Assembly (NCBI RefSeq): GCF_024223415.1 | Contig: NZ_CP100500.1 | From: Escherichia coli | GTDB lineage: Bacteria > Pseudomonadota > Gammaproteobacteria > Enterobacterales > Enterobacteriaceae | Strand: one strand, 5' to 3' | Length of the DNA stretch: 64,000 nucleotides | In this document: one piece after another, positions 13,190-22,663 of the stretch | How positions within the stretch are numbered: position 1 is the first letter of the stretch | Layout of the letters: each line of letters begins with the position of its first letter | Made by a program: the position numbers and the translations under genes | Notes under the pieces: generated by a model | What the model was told of the DNA's origin: nothing | Databases searched by the model: none | Seen by the model: the letters and a program-made list of their open reading frames with translations, nothing else

Positions 13190-13645
13190 TTATTCAACAC
13201 CTGAATCCCCCGCAGCTTCTCTCCCCTTTATAAAACGCCCCTTCCGGAATCCAGACCGCTGCAGTGCACGACGAAGATGACCGTATACCGTCTTGTCATT
13301 CTGCCCCGTCTCTTCTGTAATCTCCGCAATACTTAAACCTCTGTAATACCGGTTCAGTACCGCTCTGCGCTCTTCCAGCGTCAACACACCTCCGGCCGCT
13401 CTCAGATTCAGCATCGACTTATTCAGAATACAGCAGGCCTCTCCGGTAAAAAGAATACGAACAATATCTGTATACTCATCATCACAGAATACAAAATAAT
13501 ATCTGAATGACCTGCCTGACTGCACCCTTCTTCTGTCTGATATGGCATCTTCTATATATCTGATTCGACTGCTTACGGTTCCAAATATCTCTCGCAGGGC
13601 TTTTTCAAAATAAATATCTCTCGTCGCCAGGATTATATCCAGCAT
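13190..13645 (-). CDS. Small protein with sigma-70 region-4 / LuxR-type HTH (putative transcriptional regulator)
   Basis: 151 aa; C-terminal LTLEERRAVLNRYYRGLSIAEITEETGQNDKTVYGHLRRALQRS resembles ECF sigma region 4. Confidence 0.5.
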   Translation of the reverse strand: MLDIILATRDIYFEKALREIFGTVSSRIRYIEDAISDRRRVQSGRSFRYYFVFCDDEYTDIVRILFTGEACCILNKSMLNLRAAGGVLTLEERRAVLNRYYRGLSIAEITEETGQNDKTVYGHLRRALQRSGFRKGRFIKGREAAGDSGVE

Positions 13646-13705: not shown

Positions 13706-14833
13706 TCAGAACTCAAAATTCACACCAGCATTCCACGATGCGGATGACCCACCTGCAGCAACTGCAACTTTTCCTGCCACATTCTCTGTGAAACGGTAGC
13801 CCACGCCCACCGCAATGGCCTGCTCATCACGGTAACCACCAACGGCTGCTGTCGCGTTAAATTTTCCAACACTGTATGGCTGGAAAAGACCGGCCAGTGC
13901 CGCGCTCTGGGCTGCACTCTCCCTTAACTCCTTCCGGTTCTCTTTAATCTGCTCCTGCATATTATTCATTCTCTCTGTCGCCATCTTCTGCCAGGCTTCC
14001 GTCAAATCCAGACGATGACTGTTATTCCTTATCGCTGCTGTATTTGAGGCTATTGCTGCATCCGTCTGCGCCCTGTTCTTCACAAGCACATCGCTGAGAT
14101 GTTCTGCCTGGCTTTTCACCTCGTTACGGACAGTACGCACACTGCTGTCTGTATATGTACGCGTCTCGTCCAGAACATCCGACTTCACCGCATCCGTGTA
14201 TTCCTGCGCAGAAGCCCTGGCAGCTGTAATATTACCGTTAAGTCTGTTTTCTGCCGATTCCACTCGACTCTTAGCATCAGCAACAGCATCACGGTAGACA
14301 GCTCCTATCTCACCGCGCAGGGCATCCCCCGACTCCCGTACAGCATCTGCAATGGCGTTGTCCATCTGTCCTTTTGTGGCCGCATCACTATCCTTAACAC
14401 CATCTGAAACATTTATAATCCGGCGGGTTTCCGGTGCACCATCAACTGAAAATCCATATCCTGAAGGACCGGCCCCTACAGAAAGTACATTGCTTTCTCC
14501 ATTCACCTGAGAGCCATACCCCAGAGCGACACTGTTGTCTGCATTAAAAACAGCTGTATTATTTCCCACAGCCATGGATTTATCCGCATCCCAAATTATT
14601 GCATCGGAACCAACAGCAAAGTTTTTTCCAGTAACACTACCATCACTGTTAAAATTTCCATTTCTGTCAACCACAGTTGCACTTTCAAGTGAATGAGTGC
14701 CATTATCAATCCAGATAATACCCGTCGATGACTCAGTAAGTGTTTTATGAGCCAAAGCCTGAGATGAGAGCAGCAGGGCCACACTCACTGCCAGCGCGCT
14801 TTTCTTTAAAAAAGCATCACGTCTTTTAAGCAT
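13706..14833 (-). CDS. Trimeric autotransporter adhesin with YadA-like C-terminal anchor (Eib-like immunoglobulin-binding protein family candidate)
   Basis: ATG at 14833 gives 375 aa with signal peptide MLKRRDAFLKKSALAVSVALLLSSQALA, coiled-coil stalk, and C-terminal anchor ending ..WNAGVNFEF. Confidence 0.7.
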   Translation of the reverse strand: MLKRRDAFLKKSALAVSVALLLSSQALAHKTLTESSTGIIWIDNGTHSLESATVVDRNGNFNSDGSVTGKNFAVGSDAIIWDADKSMAVGNNTAVFNADNSVALGYGSQVNGESNVLSVGAGPSGYGFSVDGAPETRRIINVSDGVKDSDAATKGQMDNAIADAVRESGDALRGEIGAVYRDAVADAKSRVESAENRLNGNITAARASAQEYTDAVKSDVLDETRTYTDSSVRTVRNEVKSQAEHLSDVLVKNRAQTDAAIASNTAAIRNNSHRLDLTEAWQKMATERMNNMQEQIKENRKELRESAAQSAALAGLFQPYSVGKFNATAAVGGYRDEQAIAVGVGYRFTENVAGKVAVAAGGSSASWNAGVNFEF

Positions 14834-15237
14834 TCTGTTATTCTCCTGTATTATTACTTCACCAGCCAGAACGGTAGTGCGGAGCAAAAATACAGTGATA
14901 AGAATCCTCTTTTATTAATTTAATAATATCAGGAATATTATTGTGTATAATATGCGCCCTCAATTTAAGCAGCAGAAAAGCAATGACGCGAAAATCATTA
15001 AAATACATAAAGATAAAACATCATAACTATAATTATAATAAGCGCGCTTATTTTAGCATCTGAACATTTAAAGTACTGCTATCACAAAACAATAAAAATC
15101 CTGGGTAATATCTCTGATGATTGAATGAGAAATTCACGATGTCTGGTGAGAATTCTGTTCAAAACGAGGAATGCAGACGTACACGTGGCACGCACCACGT
15201 GATCCGTAGAAAAGCCTCTTGTTACGAATTTCGTAAA

Positions 15238-15496: not shown

Positions 15497-16072
15497 TCAC
15501 CATCCAACCCTGTACGCCAGAATGGTTTCACTGTCACTCAGTTCTGCTATTGCCTTTTTCATCTCCCTTTGCCTTATATGTATTTCAAGGCCTTTCCTGA
15601 ACATCGCTTTACCAGCAGCATCACTCAGGGATATCAGTTCATCTGCCGTCATCGGTACATCATTATTCTCTGCGTCCGTCCAGAAAAATCCTTCCGGCAA
15701 CACTCCGCCTCTGGCCGCTGATGCCGACATTCCAAGACGTGTCATGGCTTCCTTTCCATAATCCCATTTCCGTCCTCTGTGCTCAAAAACATACCCTGAC
15801 GCCTCCATCGCATCACGCCAGGCATTTATCTCCGCGTTTTTCATCCTGCGTGCTTCTTCCACAGCCATATCATCATTTGCCCGGTACTCACCTACCGGCC
15901 CTGCATCACCTCTTATGCAGGCTTCAAATATTTCACGACCGTAAGACTCAGGATCATCCGCACTTGCTGTAAATACACATTCTGTTTCCGCGTCTGAAAA
16001 CTTCACTATACAGTTTATGGTCGTATGACCCCTGTCAGCCCACACTGGTGACGTGATTTTATCGACCTTCAT
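15497..16072 (-). CDS. Hypothetical protein in tail-fibre assembly (tfa) position
   Basis: 191 aa ORF immediately downstream of side tail fibre gene; assignment by position only. Confidence 0.4.
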   Translation of the reverse strand: MKVDKITSPVWADRGHTTINCIVKFSDAETECVFTASADDPESYGREIFEACIRGDAGPVGEYRANDDMAVEEARRMKNAEINAWRDAMEASGYVFEHRGRKWDYGKEAMTRLGMSASAARGGVLPEGFFWTDAENNDVPMTADELISLSDAAGKAMFRKGLEIHIRQREMKKAIAELSDSETILAYRVGW

Positions 16073-16086
16073 TCATTTCTCCCCTG

Positions 16087-17892
16087 TCACCGTATTCTCT
16101 GAAACAGGCCCCAAATCGTCCCAATGATATTATTCACTGTCATGTTAGTTGTGCATAACATCCATGTACCAAGCATAGGATTGCCAAATAAAAAGCGGAT
16201 ATCTGTAAGTTTATCCGATGACGACGACACAATAACGGCCTGTCTGATACGATACCCGGGTATTTCACGGGTATTTGTTACCTCATGATTTCGTTCTATG
16301 ATCCCCAGAACATAAGACCCCACGGAATAAACACTTCCGACGCTCGCTGGCTGCCCCGGCTGTCCCTGTGGTCCTGCCGGGCCGCGTTCACCTGTATACC
16401 CTCTTGGCCCCTGAGGACCTGCCGGGCCGCGTTCACCTGTATCCCCCTTTAGTCCCTGTGGACCTGCCGGACCGCGTTCACCTGTATCGCCCTTTGGTCC
16501 CTGTGGACCACGCTCCCCCTGGGCTCCCAGCTCTTTCCATTCAGACCAGGGGCCATTACCGGTAAAATTACCAGTAACAGTTCTTACGAACTTTCGTGGT
16601 GGGTTCCAGGTTGTATATTCATGCTGGCAATATCCCCATGCACCAACTCTTACCTGAAGATAACCCGCTCTCTGAATCGGATAATTATTTTCTCGTGTAG
16701 CCCCACTGTCTGATGGCTGATAATAATCACCCTGATCGGTCACTCGTCCCAGTCGGTTCAGATCACCATTCAGCAGTTGTCCACGGGCTGACTCTCCTCT
16801 TGGTCCCTGAGGACCTGCCGGACCGCGTGCTCCTGTTTCACCTTTTGCTCCCTGTGGACCTGTCGGACCGCGTTCACCTGTTTCACCTTTTGGTCCCTGT
16901 GGTCCTGCCGGGCCGCGTTCACCTGTTTCACCCTTTGCTCCCTGTGGACCTTCCGGGCCACGTTCACCTGTATCCCCCTTTGGTCCCTGAGGACCTGCCG
17001 GGCCACGTTCACCTGTATCGCCCTTTGATCCCTGTGGACCTGCCGGGCCGCGTTCACCTGTATCCCCCTTTGGTCCCTGTGGACCTCCCGGATCTCCTTT
17101 ATCCCCCTTAGGGCCTTTTTCTCCTCGCTCACCCTTTTCTCCCTTCAGACCCTGAGGGCCTTCCGGACCACGTGCACCTGTTTCGCCCTTTGCTCCCTGT
17201 GGACCTGCCGGGCCGCGTTCACCTGTTTCGCCCTTTGCTCCCTGTGGACCTGCCGGGCCGCGTGCACCTGTTTCACCCTTTGGTCCCTGTGGACCTGCCG
17301 GGCCGCGTTCACCTGTATCGCCCTTTAGTCCCTGTGGACCTGCCGGACCGCGTTCACCTGTTTCACCTTTTGGTCCCTGTGGTCCTGCCGGGCCACGTGC
17401 TCCTGTTTCACCTTTTGGCCCCTGTGGCCCGGTAATGCCTCTTTCACCACGAGCGCCGGTATCCCCTTTCTCTCCTCGTGGTCCCCGGGCAGATGCTGCT
17501 CGTTTCCGGGCTTCCTCCGCCTCAGATGCCGCGGACTCTGCTCTGTGCAGTATGGACTGCACCACAGCCTCCAGCTCTGACAACGCCTTCGGATAATAAG
17601 GAGCATCTTCCAGCTCCATCAGAAATTTATTCAGTGTTCCCGGTGAAGAATCCTCCCTGACCACGATATCTCCCACATACGAAGGACGGTAACCTTCTGT
17701 ATTGAGTGTCACCCTGTATATTCCTGGCTCCACATCCATACTGTAACTCCCCGTCTCTTCCGGCATGCCATAAGCCACTGTCGTGGCGATGACTGTCTCG
17801 CTGGTTCTCTTCGCTTTCAGCTCAATAATGCATCCCGGTACCGGTTTTCCGGTTCCGTCCCTCAGCACGCCTGAAATTTTTACAGCCGCCAT
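16087..17892 (-). CDS. Side tail fibre protein (lambda Stf-like N-terminus) with collagen-like Gly-X-Y repeats
   Basis: 601 aa; N-terminus [18 protein letters not shown].. resembles lambda Stf; long [19 protein letters not shown] collagen triple-helix repeats. Confidence 0.85.
16320..17510. repeat. Tandem collagen-like coding repeats (27/45-bp periodic units) within the tail fibre gene
   Basis: Repeated GGTCCCTGTGGACCTGCCGGRCCGCGTTCACCTGT units on plus strand. Confidence 0.85.
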
Positions 17893-17964
17893 ACTCGCTC
17901 CATAAAAAATAATCCCGCAAAATTGCGGGCGTCGTCATTCATTTACAATCGGGTGTTTTTATGA

Positions 17965-18210
17965 TTACTTCACGCACGAAACTTTCGTAAACATATCTTC
18001 ACTCACCCACTGACCATAAAATCTCGGAGCTGATACTTTATACACAGTGCCGCTTTTCGTTTCTATTTTCCCTGTAAGATCTACCGTATAAGCTCGCTGT
18101 AAAACCCCGGGACTCAGCACACCGGTGCACCGGACTCTCTCCGTAACGGAACGGTACCCCGCGCAACCTGATACAAGAAACAGCAAAAAAGTGCAGACGA
18201 TTATTTTCAT
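17965..18210 (-). CDS. Small lipoprotein (signal peptide with LVSGC lipobox), possible Cor-like superinfection-exclusion protein
   Basis: 81 aa; MKIIVCTFLLFLVSGC lipoprotein signal; located between J-distal genes and side tail fibre. Confidence 0.55.
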   Translation of the reverse strand: MKIIVCTFLLFLVSGCAGYRSVTERVRCTGVLSPGVLQRAYTVDLTGKIETKSGTVYKVSAPRFYGQWVSEDMFTKVSCVK

Positions 18211-18894: not shown

Positions 18895-19154
18895 CAGATC
18901 CCCCTTATCATGACCAGCACGGGTCTTAACCAGCTTGTGTTGGCATAGTGCACTGTCCAGCCGGATACACTGGCACTGGTATGACTTCCCTGACCGTTAA
19001 TCAGAATGGCCGGTGAACAGACTTCCAGACGCCAGCCCTGCAAAGGAGTATAAGAACGCTGCCCCGTCCCTTCAGTGATCACATCCAGCACCCCTGTTGG
19101 GTTTATTTCATGTGTCACAAGGCGCCCTTTGCGCCATACCCGGACTCCGAACAT
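18894..19154 (-). CDS. Hypothetical protein immediately downstream of J
   Basis: 86 aa ORF; start overlaps J stop. Confidence 0.45.
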   Translation of the reverse strand: MFGVRVWRKGRLVTHEINPTGVLDVITEGTGQRSYTPLQGWRLEVCSPAILINGQGSHTSASVSGWTVHYANTSWLRPVLVMIRGI

Positions 19155-22100
19155 TACAGTCTCCCCAGTCGTACTCTTAACACATTGTTATCGTCATATA
19201 CGTCGATTCGCTCGCCATTGAAAAACAGGCGGCCTGCGCCGGGCCTTCCTGAGTTAATTTCAAGGCTGCCGTTTCTTGATAAACGCCACCCCGGACTACC
19301 GGAATGAAAATTATCTGACCGGATATCTCCCGTCACTCTGGCAAAATCCACGGTCAGTTTTTTCATGAAAACATCATTCATGAACAGCTGATCACCCTGA
19401 GCCACAAACAAAGGTGTTGTATTGCCATTTTCCGGGTTAATCATCGCAATACGATCTGCCTGCATCAGGATCTGACTCTGAATTCCGTCAGACGTATTTT
19501 CGATTCCGGCACCAATACCTGCAATATAGAGACGTCCATCCCGTGTCTGCTGCAGCTTCACAGCCCACATGCTGTTCAGGTTCCGGCGCGTGTCCTCCTG
19601 AACTTTCTGTATCTGCTCAATGCTGGCATTCCAGGATCCCAGTTTTTTATCCGTGCTCTGTGTGATCTGACTTCCCTTATCATCAACATACTGTCTGATC
19701 TGCGCTATCTGTCGGCTGTTCTCCTCCGTGCTCCTGCTTACTGTCTGCCGGATTTCGCTTCCCATCCTGTCAACTTTTCTGTCAACTTCCGCAATGGCCA
19801 TTGACTGTTCAGCGCTCTTTTTCGCCACAACAGTACTTATTTGCGCACTTTTATCATCAACATACTGCCTGACCTGCGCTATCTGTCGGCTGTTCTCCTC
19901 CGTGCTCCTGCTCACTGTCTGCCGGATTTCACTGCTCACGCTGTCAACTTTCCTGTCGACTTTCGCAATGGCCAGCGACTGTTCACCGCTCTTTTTCGCC
20001 ACCAGTTCCGTTATGCTGTTTTCAGACGCCGTGATTTTTTTCGTCACCTCTGCGATATCACGCTCCGCACGCTGCCTCACATCTTTCTCCAGCTGCGTCA
20101 TTTCGCGGTTAATCGCATTCTCCAGTTGCTCAACTTCAGTGCGCCGTGCAGAGGCATCAATGCGTTCATTGATCTCCCGTCCCAGATGCGTTTTATTTAT
20201 CGCCCCCCTGAAAAAATTAAGGTAACCGGCAGGATCATTACTCGCCCGACCGACTGCCTCCACGAATGCCGATTTACCGACAGTGTTAACACTGCGGATA
20301 TAAAAGTAATAATCATGGCCAGGTTTAATATTCTGGCCGGAGACAAGCCACTGACTTCCGGTACCAAGATAACGGGCTGTGGTTTCAACCTGCCTGATAT
20401 CGGTAATCCGCGTTTCCGAGAACCAGAACTCAAACTGTACCGTCGGATCGTAAACCGCAAGATGCGGCGTGGCGGTTATCTGAAAATAGCCCGGCGTCAG
20501 CTCAATCCGCGACGGCGCTGCCGGTGCGGCAATCCGGAACGATACCGACGCCGGGTCTCCCTGCTGCCCCCGGGCATTTACTGCCCGGACTGTCAGCCTG
20601 TAGTTCCCCGGCGCCAGCTGCCTGAAGCGGTATGTGGTTTCCGTCGTCCGGGCCGTGCTGACCAGCCGCTCACTGCCATCATCCGCGGCCACGGTCAGGC
20701 GAAGCAGGAAGCTCACGCCCTTCACCACCTTCGGCGTGTCCCAGCGCGCCAGCACCTGATATTCCCCGCTGTCTGCGGTGACTTCTGCGGTCAGGTGCTG
20801 CACCGCTGGCGGCGTGACACCATTCACCGTTCCGCTCTGGTCGCCGTCAAAGTGCGCCCCGTTATCCACGATGGCCTCTTTTTCCGGTACATGCTGCACG
20901 GCAGTGATGGCATACGTGCCGTCGTCGTTCTCACGGATACTCACGCAGCGGAACAGGCGCTGGCGCAGCGTCGGCAGCTTCAGCCCCCACACGCTGTACT
21001 CGGCAACGCCGTCAGGAACCCGGCTCACTTTTACCTTCACGCCGTCGGTGACGGACTGAACCTCCACGCTGACCGGATTGCCACTTCCGTCAACCAGACT
21101 TATCAGCGTGGTACCGGAGGATGGCAGCGTGATTTCACGGTCGAGCGTCAGCGTCCGGGTCTGGCTGTTCACCGCCAGCACACGACCACCGGTGCTGATA
21201 CCGGCATAGTCATCATCACAGATTTCAATGACATCGCCCGGTACATGGCGAAGCCCTTCAGCACCCACGCTGAAATCCACGGTCTGCGTCTCCAGCAGTT
21301 CTGTTTTAATCAGCCACAGCCCGGCGCGGTGTGCCTGCCCCCGGCTGGTACAGCCAAAGGCATCCATCTTCGTGACGTTACGACCGTAACGGGCAATGGC
21401 CTGCGTGTCCTCCACAAGCTCTGTCGCCGTCTCCTGGCCGTTATCCGGGTCACTCCAGTTCACCTCAACGGCATTATGGCGGTCCTTCAGGGCGCTGAAG
21501 CTGTAGCGGAACGGCGCGCCATCATCCGGCATCACCACATTACTGCGGTTATAGGTCCACACCTTATCCGACGGTCGGTCCTGCACGAACGTCAGCGTCT
21601 GCCCGTTCCATACCGGCATACAGCGCATCGCCGAGCAGAAATCACTGAGCACATCCCACGCCTTACGCTGCCTGGTCAGCCAGGCATTACAGGTGATGCG
21701 CGGCTCCGTGCCACCAGAGCCGTCCGGCACCGACTGGTCGCAGTACTGGCCGATGACATACAGCGCCCATTTGTCCACATCCGCTGCGCCAACACGTTTC
21801 CCCATGCCGTAGCGCGGGTGGGTCAGCATATCCCACAGACACCAGGCCGGGTTATCGCTGTATGCCGGTTTAAACGTTCCGTCCCAGATACCGCTGTATT
21901 GCCGCGTCTGCGGGTTATAGTTCGACGGCACCTGCAGAATGCGCCCGCGAAGATGATAATTACGGCTCACCTGCTGGCTGCCGAACTGCTCCGAATCCAC
22001 CTGCACACCGACCAGTGCCGTGTTCGGGTAGCACTGTTTCACATCGATGATTTCGGTGTATGACGACCAGAGCGTTTTGTTCTGCAGCTGGTCTGTGGTG

Positions 22101-22663
22101 CTGTCCGGCGTCATCCTGCGCATCCGGATACTGAACGGGCGCGGCGGCAGGTTACCCACCACCACCGGGGCCAGATACTGCGAGGTGGTTTTGCCCTTAA
22201 TGGTGATGTCTTTTTCCGTTAACCAGCGACCGTTACGCTGTATCTGAACCAGCAGGCGGACTTCCGACGGATTCCGGTCCCCCTTTGAGGTGGTTTCCAC
22301 CAGTGCCTGCACACCGAAGGTCAGGCGCAGACGGTCGATGTTTGCCGACGTGATGGTCCGGGTAATCGGCGTGTCGTACTTCACTTCCGTACCCAGCACC
22401 GTCTCGGAGCCGGAGGATTCAAATCCCTCCGGCGGCGTCTGCTCCTGCTCACCGGCCCGGAATACCACCGTGACGCCGGATATATTGGTATTCCCCTCAC
22501 TGTCCAGCACCGGCGTACCGTTCAGCAGCACGCTTTTTAATCCATCCACCGGTCCTTGTATCGGCCCTTCGCTGATGACATCGATCACACTCAGCAACTG
22601 CGTGGACTTCAGGTTGTCCTTCGCTTCGCGCGGGGTATGCCCCTTACTGCTGCCTTTACCCAT
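19154..22663 (-). CDS. Host specificity / central tail fibre protein J
   Basis: 1169 aa; lambda gpJ-like N-terminal and fibronectin-like regions; internal duplicated coiled-coil segment. Confidence 0.9.
19690..19995. repeat. About 150-bp tandem duplication inside J (encodes repeated ..AKKSxEQSxAIAxVDRKVD..[28 protein letters not shown].. segment)
   Basis: Two near-identical adjacent copies visible in DNA and protein. Confidence 0.8.

Follow-up and report, generated by a model that had tools for sequence, protein, structure and literature searches.

The window analysed here, a stretch of 64,000 nucleotides of Escherichia coli DNA, contains an apparently complete lambdoid prophage, judged by a gene set that is complete for J, tape measure, major tail, capsid, portal, terminase and integrase. 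The J gene (19154-22663, minus strand) displays five J-specific Pfam domains and is followed by three small moron-type ORFs. Downstream of these lies a gene for a side tail fibre, and its parts and its neighbour are as follows.

16087-17892, minus strand: side tail fibre gene, complete, 601 aa plus stop; EPclC-type collagen-like prophage fibre (ORF list, PF08400, PF01391, PHROG)
17485-17892, minus strand: N-terminal region, aa 1-136; PfN collar/attachment domain (aa 3-92) and neck
16789-17484, minus strand: collagen block 1, aa 137-368; 45 + 32 Gly-X-Y triplets with a 45-bp DNA period
16528-16788, minus strand: predicted globular knob domain, aa 369-455 (87 aa) (PDB profile search, AF2, Foldseek)
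16348-16527, minus strand: collagen block 2, aa 456-515; 20 Gly-X-Y triplets, 45-bp unit family as in block 1
16090-16347, minus strand: C-terminal domain of 86 aa, aa 516-601; no family match
15497-16072, minus strand: DUF4376 gene, 191 aa, downstream of the fibre gene; PF14301 (E 1.5e-20) and phrog_1141 'tail fiber protein' (E 5e-62)

The N-terminus matches PF08400 (E 2.7e-39), and residues 3-92 match the collar domain of Ur-lambda gpStf (residues 1-94, PDB 9e7m, E 5.5e-30), the N-terminal domain for which a collar role has been described in lambda (PMC12617516). The neck, at about aa 100-136, is short, helical and rich in alanine and glutamate. PHROG tail fibre families match the gene with a best E of 2.4e-119, and RefSeq homologues of 98.4% identity are labelled 'prophage tail fiber N-terminal domain-containing protein'. 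The gene thus combines two features of a lambda Stf-type fibre, a collar-homologous N-terminus and a position in the tail module downstream of J, and the view of it as a collagen-repeat side tail fibre, taken in a preliminary description of this DNA that left the minus-strand orientation unmentioned, holds. The fibre is carried by no sequenced phage among 50,697 phage records; megablast with the gene gave no matches there, and tblastn found only partial, about 60% identical EPclB-like fibres.

The gene could also be read as a bacterial surface adhesin of the collagen-like Scl/Lcl type, carried by the prophage as cargo and not as a virion fibre. The NCBIfam models for Lcl, SclA and SclB do match with E values of 1e-56 to 1e-60, and a true adhesin-type gene (YadA/Eib-like) is found two genes downstream. 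However, the NCBIfam scores are 192-205 bits against curated cut-offs of 325-500 and cover the Gly-X-Y part only, while at the N-terminus there is the collar of lambda Stf and no signal peptide, and the protein has no cell-wall or membrane anchor. The gene is further enclosed by the tail module, with J on one side and a tail-fibre-associated gene on the other. On the sub-cut-off scores and the phage collar the adhesin reading was rejected, and it is scarcely credible.

The minus-strand translation contains 97 Gly-X-Y triplets in three unbroken runs, aa 137-271 (45), 273-368 (32) and 456-515 (20), and matches Pfam Collagen (PF01391) with E 1.5e-48 and 162.9 bits against a cut-off of 27.2. The X position is most often occupied by proline (43/97) and glutamate (26), and the Y position by arginine (22), lysine (20), threonine (18) and glutamine (18). 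Block 1 is broken by a single residue in the motif GDPGGPQG (aa 266-273), which fits the conserved G-X-P-G-G-P-X-G interruption of Ghosh et al. (2012). At the DNA level Tandem Repeats Finder reports two arrays.

16800-17427: tandem array 1; period 45 bp, 14.3 copies, 80% matches, score 668
16362-16509: tandem array 2; period 45 bp, 3.3 copies, 88% matches, score 220

Autocorrelation gives a self-identity of 0.79 at lag 45 and 0.72 at lag 90, while other multiples of 9 lie at 0.39-0.49, and the periodic signal is far above chance. The repeat had been described as about 1.2 kb of near-identical 27/45-bp units forming two collagen blocks parted by a globular segment. The two blocks are there, separated by the 87-aa non-collagen stretch at 16528-16788, and so is the 45-bp unit, but lag 27 (0.45) behaves like any other multiple of 9, and there is no separate 27-bp period. 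Near-identity is too strong a word for core units with a mean pairwise identity of 89% (range 78-100%). As to extent, 876 bp of the span is collagen coding; 261 bp encodes the globular domain, and the limits given lie 26-28 bp outside the collagen on either side. At the standard rise of the collagen helix, 0.286 nm per residue, one 45-bp unit (15 aa) amounts to about 4.3 nm. By analogy with EPclA of O157:H7, a fibre of a different class for which both the trimer and the collagen triple helix have been shown biochemically (PMC3368898), the protein would form a trimer with a collagen triple helix.

The repeats also give rise to five further ORFs of at least 60 aa, either on the opposite strand or out of frame with the gene.

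16368-16565, plus strand: repeat-driven ORF
16713-17111, plus strand: repeat-driven ORF
17172-17435, plus strand: repeat-driven ORF
16770-17132, minus strand: repeat-driven ORF
17325-17606, minus strand: repeat-driven ORF

None of the five matches Pfam, and RefSeq leaves them uncalled in a 98.4% identical locus, in agreement with the earlier advice not to annotate them. Annotation of this region should keep the 601-aa minus-strand gene alone and suppress the five ORFs as repeat artefacts.

The segment between the collagen blocks has no Pfam match, but a profile of its family retrieves the R2 and R1 pyocin fibres 6CL6, 6CT8 and 6CL5 from the PDB (hmmsearch, E 1.1e-14, 3.2e-13 and 1.2e-10). The AF2 model of the domain has a pLDDT of 94, and the best three Foldseek hits for this model are the same pyocin fibres, with probability 1.00, TM 0.69-0.70 and an rmsd of 3.1 Å over 86 columns. 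Sequence profile and model thus agree in predicting a knob domain akin to those of R-type pyocin fibres. The family has 268 cluster representatives in a library of 1.8 billion proteins and often occurs in two to four copies per protein. Pf2 (PF03406) was considered for this middle domain and ruled out, with no Pfam match at E up to 10.

The C-terminal domain gave no match in Pfam (E up to 10), in NCBIfam or in a PDB sequence search, and its single-sequence AF2 model (pLDDT 47) is unusable. It is confined to its own protein cluster and is found in 22 of 5426 complete E. coli genomes, at an identity of at least 97.7%. It is presumed to be a distal trimerisation domain or a receptor-binding tip. 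The DUF4376 gene adjoins the fibre gene in every relative, and this constant linkage points to a probable assembly or accessory protein that is co-inherited with the fibre. Its reported matches are PF14301 and phrog_1141, with none to the lambda Tfa family.

Ten alleles from nine strains, all from complete-genome assemblies and with flanking domains of 98.9-99.8% nucleotide identity, were compared. They contain 97, 97, 97, 92, 102, 102, 82, 73, 78 and 78 triplets, which corresponds to a rod of roughly 63-88 nm over the span of 73-102, and all three sub-blocks differ in length, while the GDPGGPQG break is kept in 10/10 alleles. The earlier suggestion that the repeat number can change is thereby confirmed, since relatives have 73, 78, 82, 92, 97 or 102 triplets and not one identical number. 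The indels between alleles (-45, +45, -135, -90, +90 and +9 bp) are all in frame and mostly multiples of 45 bp. A relative of 441 aa has 29 + 15 triplets, and one allele of 457 aa lacks the knob; the alignment of the latter fits either a deletion or an insertion, and its junction is ambiguous because alignments through the repeats place the gaps differently against the window and against TUM9803. All of the 14 nearest database records, several of which are one clone, have exactly the length of the window gene, indicating that the rate of change is not extreme. A phase-variable contingency locus was ruled out, as the unit is 45 bp, the indels are all multiples of 9 bp and the frame is kept; the variation concerns length and not an on/off state.

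Tandem repeats of this size raise the question of assembly. The 0.7-kb array breaks short-read assemblies, making fibre alleles in draft genomes unreliable, and the length differences might be artefacts of such assembly around a truly fixed repeat number. In line with this, when 5.8 billion proteins were searched through a word index for the C-terminal domain, only four partial fragments came back, labelled 'collagen-like protein' and from contigs of 324-2302 bp, so that the protein library is of no use for the length distribution, and an exact-sequence look-up did not find the 601-aa sequence in the protein collection. The records compared are, however, complete-genome assemblies, and their indels stay in frame and mostly comprise whole 45-bp units. 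In addition, two unrelated strains with alleles 36 nt apart both have the 616-aa length, the 457-aa allele is present as two identical copies in one genome (two prophages of one strain), and variable Col lengths were already obtained from earlier finished genomes (Ghosh et al., 2012; PMC3368898). An artefact is therefore very unlikely.

The allele comparison also supports recombination as the source of the length variation. Block 1 shows 3.6-4.2 substitutions per 100 nt and the other parts 0-0.7, and the repeats have 5 to 10 times the substitution density of the rest. The counts are per nucleotide, and as conversion tracts link neighbours, binomial P values on them overstate independence. Most of the variant 15-mers, 22/25 and 24/33, already occur at another place in the gene; for random substitutions the share is 3.8%. 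The gene contains 135 pairs of exact repeats of at least 25 bp, the longest being 51 bp, and the two blocks share an exact match of 41 bp. The region is very probably the shaft part of a lambda-type side tail fibre gene, encoding a collagen rod whose length is altered by recombination or slippage between units.

A model of the fibre can be proposed on this basis. Three chains would, by homology, form one fibre, with the N-terminal PfN domain docking as a collar at the junction of tail tube and tip, as in Ur-lambda, and the short helical neck coming next. The shaft would be a collagen triple helix that replaces the long Ala/Ser coiled coil of lambda: a block 1 rod of about 66 nm, in which the one conserved break in the glycine register may act as a kink, then the pyocin-type knob, and then a block 2 rod of about 17 nm. 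The small and rare C-terminal domain would stand last and presumably trimerises the fibre or contacts the receptor, aided by the adjacent DUF4376 protein. As the units are 78-100% identical and contain many exact direct repeats of 25-51 bp, homologous recombination between units out of register, or slippage during replication, would add or remove whole units in frame and shuffle their variants. Such length changes are probably tolerated, since a chain with any whole number of triplets can still fold. Exchange between block 1 and block 2 could fuse the blocks and delete the knob.

Whether the variation is also adaptive is a separate matter. The array might be an evolvable ruler, with fibre length and the presence of the knob selected to fit the surface layer or receptor geometry of the host, thereby changing host range or adsorption rate; an effect on host range had been put forward as a possibility in the preliminary description. 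Lengths differ in every sub-block among otherwise near-identical alleles, and the knob-less allele is retained in both prophages of one strain. The side fibres of lambda reach the surface before the central fibre and speed up adsorption (PMC12617516), and outside the phages an 81-nt deletion in the collagen-like repeats of a virophage accompanied an expansion of host range (PMC7242381). However, the receptor-binding end is constant across the length variants (97.7-100% amino-acid identity), so that a change in specificity as such is unlikely, and neutral turnover of units in a length-tolerant spacer predicts the same pattern. Adaptive tuning is accordingly considered unlikely. Less likely still is a more specific version, in which the blocks and their common 45-bp unit are a built-in system that steps the reach by about 4.3 nm and switches the knob in or out, the length polymorphism being selected to match the thickness of the O-antigen or capsule of the host; if this were true, the phage would adapt to its hosts by length and not by the tip. 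The alleles form a natural series, from 73 to 102 triplets and with the knob present or absent but the ends identical, that suits tests of side-fibre length against adsorption and could help in engineering collagen spacers into phage or tailocin fibres. In practical terms the value is modest, and the current picture of phage fibres is unchanged.

Among known systems, Ur-lambda gpStf (9e7m; PMC12617516) shares the collar domain and the gene position after J, and the present fibre would likewise be a trimer in which a joint connects a proximal rod with a distal part. The lambda rod, however, is an Ala/Ser-rich α-helical coiled coil that leads to a gp37-like, OmpC-binding distal domain, while a collagen rod and unrelated distal domains are found here, and the downstream gene is Tfa in lambda and DUF4376 here. 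In the pyocin fibres the knobs are found in a β-helical shaft next to a C-terminal foot, whereas the present fibre has a single knob between collagen helices.

Collagen-like repeats have been regarded as recombination hotspots in phages since Desiere et al. (1998), as cited in PMC7242381. In the antireceptors of Streptococcus thermophilus phages Gly-X-Y repeats part the domains of the host-recognition protein; a role as recombination hotspots was suggested for them (Desiere, 1998; Duplessis and Moineau, 2001) and spontaneous deletions were observed, according to the citing accounts (PMC7242381; PMC5601072). These proteins differ in belonging to another phage lineage and host, with unrelated flanking domains and much shorter repeats.

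Closest are the collagen-like fibres of E. coli prophages, for which variable collagen lengths and the same interruption motif have been reported (Ghosh et al., 2012, PLoS One 7:e37872; PMC3368898). EPclA and EPclB, from O157:H7 Sakai/EDL933 prophages and Stx phages, likewise combine PfN with a collagen shaft, and EPclB also has two collagen domains around a globular module; tblastn aligns their N-terminal and collagen parts with the window gene at about 57-61% identity. They differ in having a PCoil of 109-116 aa and a PfC (PF06820), and in EPclB also a Pf2 repeat, none of which was detected in the window gene. By architecture as described in Ghosh et al. (2012) the fibre is of the EPclC class: PfN is followed by two Col domains, PCoil is absent (PfN and Col1 are only about 35 residues apart), the C-terminus has no PfC homology and the first Col has a single GxPGGPxG break. 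The type example is ORF-401 of the ECOR-9 prophage P-EibA, compared by description. An eib-type gene nearby and collagen lengths differing by multiples of three residues are common to both, but the collagen is longer here, 232 + 60 aa against 106-118 + 75-117 aa. ED1a, which carries the EPclC member ECED1_1681, is not among the 22 genomes with the present C-terminal domain, and this C-terminus may thus be a different EPclC variant. The kind of fibre and its variable length were already described in 2012, making the present finding real but ordinary; the assignment of a pyocin-type knob to the domain between the collagen blocks comes from this analysis and not from Ghosh et al. (2012).

The N-terminus of the 601-aa fibre protein matches the Pfam family PF08400, 'Prophage tail fibre N-terminal' (aa 3-133, E 2.7e-39), and the protein also matches Collagen in Pfam (E 1.5e-48) and tail-fibre families in PHROGs (best E 2.4e-119). 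Residues 3-92 match PDB 9e7m (E 5.5e-30), which is the N-terminal domain of gpStf, the side fibre of Ur-lambda. In that phage twelve copies of the domain build a collar where tail tube and tip meet, and this anchors the four trimeric side fibres (PMC12617516). These matches and the position of the gene in the tail module agree with its preliminary description as a collagen-repeat side tail fibre. The genes and gene segments discussed here are:

16087-17892, minus strand, fibre gene
16789-17484, minus strand, collagen block 1 (Gly-X-Y translation)
16528-16788, minus strand, non-collagen segment between the blocks (261 bp, 87 aa)
16348-16527, minus strand, collagen block 2 (Gly-X-Y translation)
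15497-16072, minus strand, DUF4376/phrog_1141 'tail fiber protein' gene, directly downstream of the fibre gene
13706-14887, minus strand, YadA-like trimeric autotransporter of 393 aa (PF03895 anchor, stalk and head repeats)

The host prophage is lambdoid and apparently complete, with the fibre gene in its tail module; terminase, portal, protease, major capsid, major tail, tape measure, L, I, J and integrase genes are all found in the window. J (19154-22663) and three small moron-type ORFs lie upstream of the fibre gene, and the DUF4376 gene accompanies the fibre in all relatives examined. The flanking genes mepM-lpxM-znuA-znuC are 100% identical to those of strain NCTC9112, and 5425 of the 5426 complete E. 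coli genomes contain them.

An 81-aa lipoprotein-like ORF (17965-18210, minus strand) is similar to superinfection-exclusion proteins of the Cor kind (phrog_1119, E 8e-7). After this ORF, and some 20 nt before the start codon of the fibre gene, comes a terminator-like hairpin, CCCGCAATTTTGCGGG, with a T-run (17914-17929, minus strand); the matching interval carries no annotation in the RefSeq relatives. The interior of J contains a 174-bp tandem duplication (19677-20002, 1.9 copies, 90% matches), which doubles a 58-aa coiled-coil-like segment containing [V/I]RQYVDDK in the C-terminal part of this central tail fibre and is a further in-frame length polymorphism in a host-recognition protein. 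A 740-aa ORF antisense to J (19841-22063, plus strand) could be mis-called by gene finders because of its length, and is almost certainly spurious.

The preliminary description had placed collagen repeats of 27/45 bp at 16320-17510, in two blocks separated by a globular segment. The two blocks and the 87-aa segment are recovered in the translation, and the coordinates are nearly right, the collagen-coding DNA of both blocks amounting to 876 bp. The protein contains 97 Gly-X-Y triplets in unbroken runs of 45 (aa 137-271), 32 (aa 273-368), and 20 (aa 456-515); the register of block 1 is broken once, by one residue, in GDPGGPQG (aa 266-273). The X positions are chiefly Pro (43/97) and Glu and the Y positions chiefly Arg, Lys, Thr, and Gln, as reported for prophage collagens lacking hydroxyproline (PMC3368898).

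Tandem Repeats Finder detects a larger array of 45-bp period at 16800-17427 (14.3 copies, 80% matches, score 668) and a smaller one at 16362-16509 (3.3 copies, 88% matches, score 220). Lags 45 and 90 give self-identities of 0.79 and 0.72, and the remaining multiples of 9, lag 27 among them, 0.39-0.49. Since only lags 45 and 90 peak, the repeat unit is 45 bp, or 15 aa, and there is no 27-bp unit. Ten core units have a mean pairwise nucleotide identity of 89% (range 78-100%). The gene holds 135 pairs of exact direct repeats of at least 25 bp, the longest being 51 bp, and a 41-bp exact match is shared by blocks 1 and 2. Out of frame with the fibre gene, or on the plus strand, five ORFs (60-132 aa) overlap the repeats. 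They match no Pfam family, and at a 98.4% identical locus in RefSeq a single fibre CDS is annotated over the repeats; the earlier warning about repeat-driven ORFs is correct.

Only 23 of the 5426 complete genomes give megablast matches to the fibre gene. Ten alleles from nine strains were compared, their N-terminal 408 nt and C-terminal 261 nt being 98.9-99.8% identical to those of the window.

Table. Gly-X-Y triplets per run, total triplets and protein length in ten alleles
Window, NRZ14408, B771: 45 + 32 + 20; 97; 601 aa
Strain 135: 45 + 32 + 15; 92; 586 aa
Ch1, 24A16CRGN010: 45 + 37 + 20; 102; 616 aa
ECCNB12-2: 45 + 17 + 20; 82; 556 aa
TUM9803: 35 + 17 + 21; 73; 529 aa
TUM1886, two identical copies: 55 + 23, knob domain absent; 78; 457 aa

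As predicted from the sequence, the repeat number differs between homologous fibres, from 73 to 102 triplets. All gaps in the pairwise DNA alignments fall within the repeats (-45, +45, -135, -90, +90, and +9 bp). The reading frame is kept in every allele, so this is length variation, and on/off phase variation is rejected. A metagenomic representative of the 50%-identity cluster has 29 + 15 triplets in 441 aa. A word-indexed search with the C-terminus retrieves only partial 'collagen-like protein' fragments (P0001-P0004) on contigs of 221-2302 bp, and short-read assemblies thus evidently break in the collagen repeat. It is nevertheless unlikely that the allele lengths are assembly errors, since the 616-aa length occurs in two strains whose alleles are 36 nucleotides apart, the knob-less allele is present twice in identical form in TUM1886, and length variation was seen in finished genomes as early as 2012 (PMC3368898). 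The closest 14 records, several of which represent the same clone as judged from identical record lengths, share the length found in the window; relative to the divergence of the strains, turnover is therefore frequent but not hypervariable.

The two knob-less copies lie in separate TUM1886 prophage loci (L008, 2423-3796; L010, 3001-4374), and this natural knob-less allele is an addition of the present analysis. IS66-family (ISCro1-like) elements are found in or adjoining the fibre gene or the DUF4376 gene in four of nine relatives examined (L002, L004, L006, and L007; strains 135, GF60, TUM9803, and AR_0085), and one interrupts the fibre gene of GF60.

Two alleles of the same length as that of the window differ from it by 29 and 35 nucleotides, 25 and 33 of them inside the collagen blocks; block 1 has 3.6-4.2 differences per 100 nt and the non-repeat parts 0-0.7. 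For 22/25 and 24/33 of the collagen-block differences the 15-mer of the relative is present elsewhere in the window gene, while only 3.8% of simulated random substitutions re-use existing 15-mers. Adjacent differences are linked and nominal P values therefore too optimistic, but the direction of the effect is clear. As the variant 15-mers pre-exist in the gene, gene conversion or compensating gain and loss of units is indicated rather than point mutation. This quantitative signature of unit shuffling is likewise new here. The in-frame gaps, mostly of whole units, and the re-use of 15-mers bear out in substance that the array is recombination-prone: near-identical alleles built of 45-bp units differ in frame, mostly by such units.

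The segment between the collagen blocks (aa 369-455) matches neither a Pfam or NCBIfam family nor, by direct sequence search, any PDB entry. When 1.84 billion cluster representatives are searched exhaustively with HMMER, 268 related proteins are found (E <=0.001); in the best 150 of these, rescanned locally, the segment was matched in every case, with two to four copies in 50. Ten knob-bearing proteins scanned against Pfam have no family at the knob position, and several contain other tail-fibre modules (Phage_fiber_2, Peptidase_S74, Gp53-like C). A profile from 43 of the domains (alignment A2) matches the R2/R1 pyocin fibres 6CL6, 6CT8, and 6CL5 (E 1.1e-14 to 1.2e-10). An AlphaFold2 model on this alignment (mean pLDDT 94) has the same three structures as its top Foldseek matches in PDB (probability 1.00, TM 0.69-0.70). 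Profile, model and structural matches together identify the segment as a fibre knob domain of the pyocin-type fold, an assignment new in the present analysis.

The C-terminal 86 aa are without any match in Pfam, NCBIfam or PDB, and protein-library searches confine their relatives to their own cluster. The domain occurs in 22/5426 complete E. coli genomes, each time with at least 97.7% nucleotide identity; a single-sequence structure model is unusable (pLDDT 47). Five of the 22 genomes (GF60, TUM1886, OY754357, ECCNB12-2, and Ch1) hold 2-3 copies, which offers partners for inter-prophage recombination. A collection of 15 billion proteins does not contain the exact 601-aa sequence.

The order of domains is PfN collar, short helical neck, collagen, knob, collagen, and a small C-terminal domain. 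The protein would trimerise, and with the standard collagen helix rise of 0.286 nm per residue its Gly-X-Y blocks would form triple helices of about 66 and 17 nm, in which the conserved register break of block 1 may serve as a kink. One 45-bp unit is calculated to correspond to about 4.3 nm of rod, and the observed alleles to about 63-88 nm. The number of units probably shifts through misaligned RecA- or Red-type recombination, or slippage, between units sharing exact repeats of 25-51 bp, and exchange between the two blocks could create or remove the knob. The tip contacting the receptor would presumably consist of the C-terminal domain and the DUF4376 protein. The receptor end does not vary between alleles of different length; any effect on adsorption or host range would therefore concern reach or geometry and leave specificity as it is. 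Lambda gpStf has an alpha-helical coiled coil as its proximal rod (PMC12617516), the place of which collagen would take here.

Near-identical fibre genes are already annotated in RefSeq, and the class was published in 2012, when four architectures of E. coli prophage collagen-like proteins, EPclA to EPclD, were described and read as side tail fibres (Ghosh et al., 2012; PMC3368898). For EPclA, both a trimeric state and a genuine collagen triple helix were demonstrated, and in each architecture the Col length varies by multiples of three residues (PMC3368898). In a passage of PMC7242381, collagen-like repeats as recombination hotspots in phage host-recognition genes are credited to Desiere et al. 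(1998), and a passage of PMC5601072 cites earlier work on phage collagen-like repeats by Duplessis and Moineau (2001).

The YadA-like gene can be taken as an Eib-type prophage moron from the RefSeq names of its counterparts ('immunoglobulin-binding protein' or YadA-like). Its length varies widely in the relatives (1038-1548 nt), and NRZ14408 carries it as a pseudogene. Directly downstream of it, at the prophage end, same-context relatives conserve a 151-aa ORF (13190-13645, minus strand), which has no PHROG match and whose counterparts are annotated 'sigma factor-like helix-turn-helix DNA-binding protein'.

In EPclC proteins PfN is combined with two Col domains, PCoil is usually missing, and the C-terminus is not related to PfC; ORF-401 of the ECOR-9 prophage P-EibA is the type example (PMC3368898). 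The present fibre has PfN, merely about 35 residues from PfN to Col1, two Col domains, no match to PF06820, and a YadA/Eib-type gene two genes downstream. It fits every EPclC feature tested, the comparison being with the architecture as described. As its C-terminal domain is rare, it may be a further C-terminal variant of EPclC.
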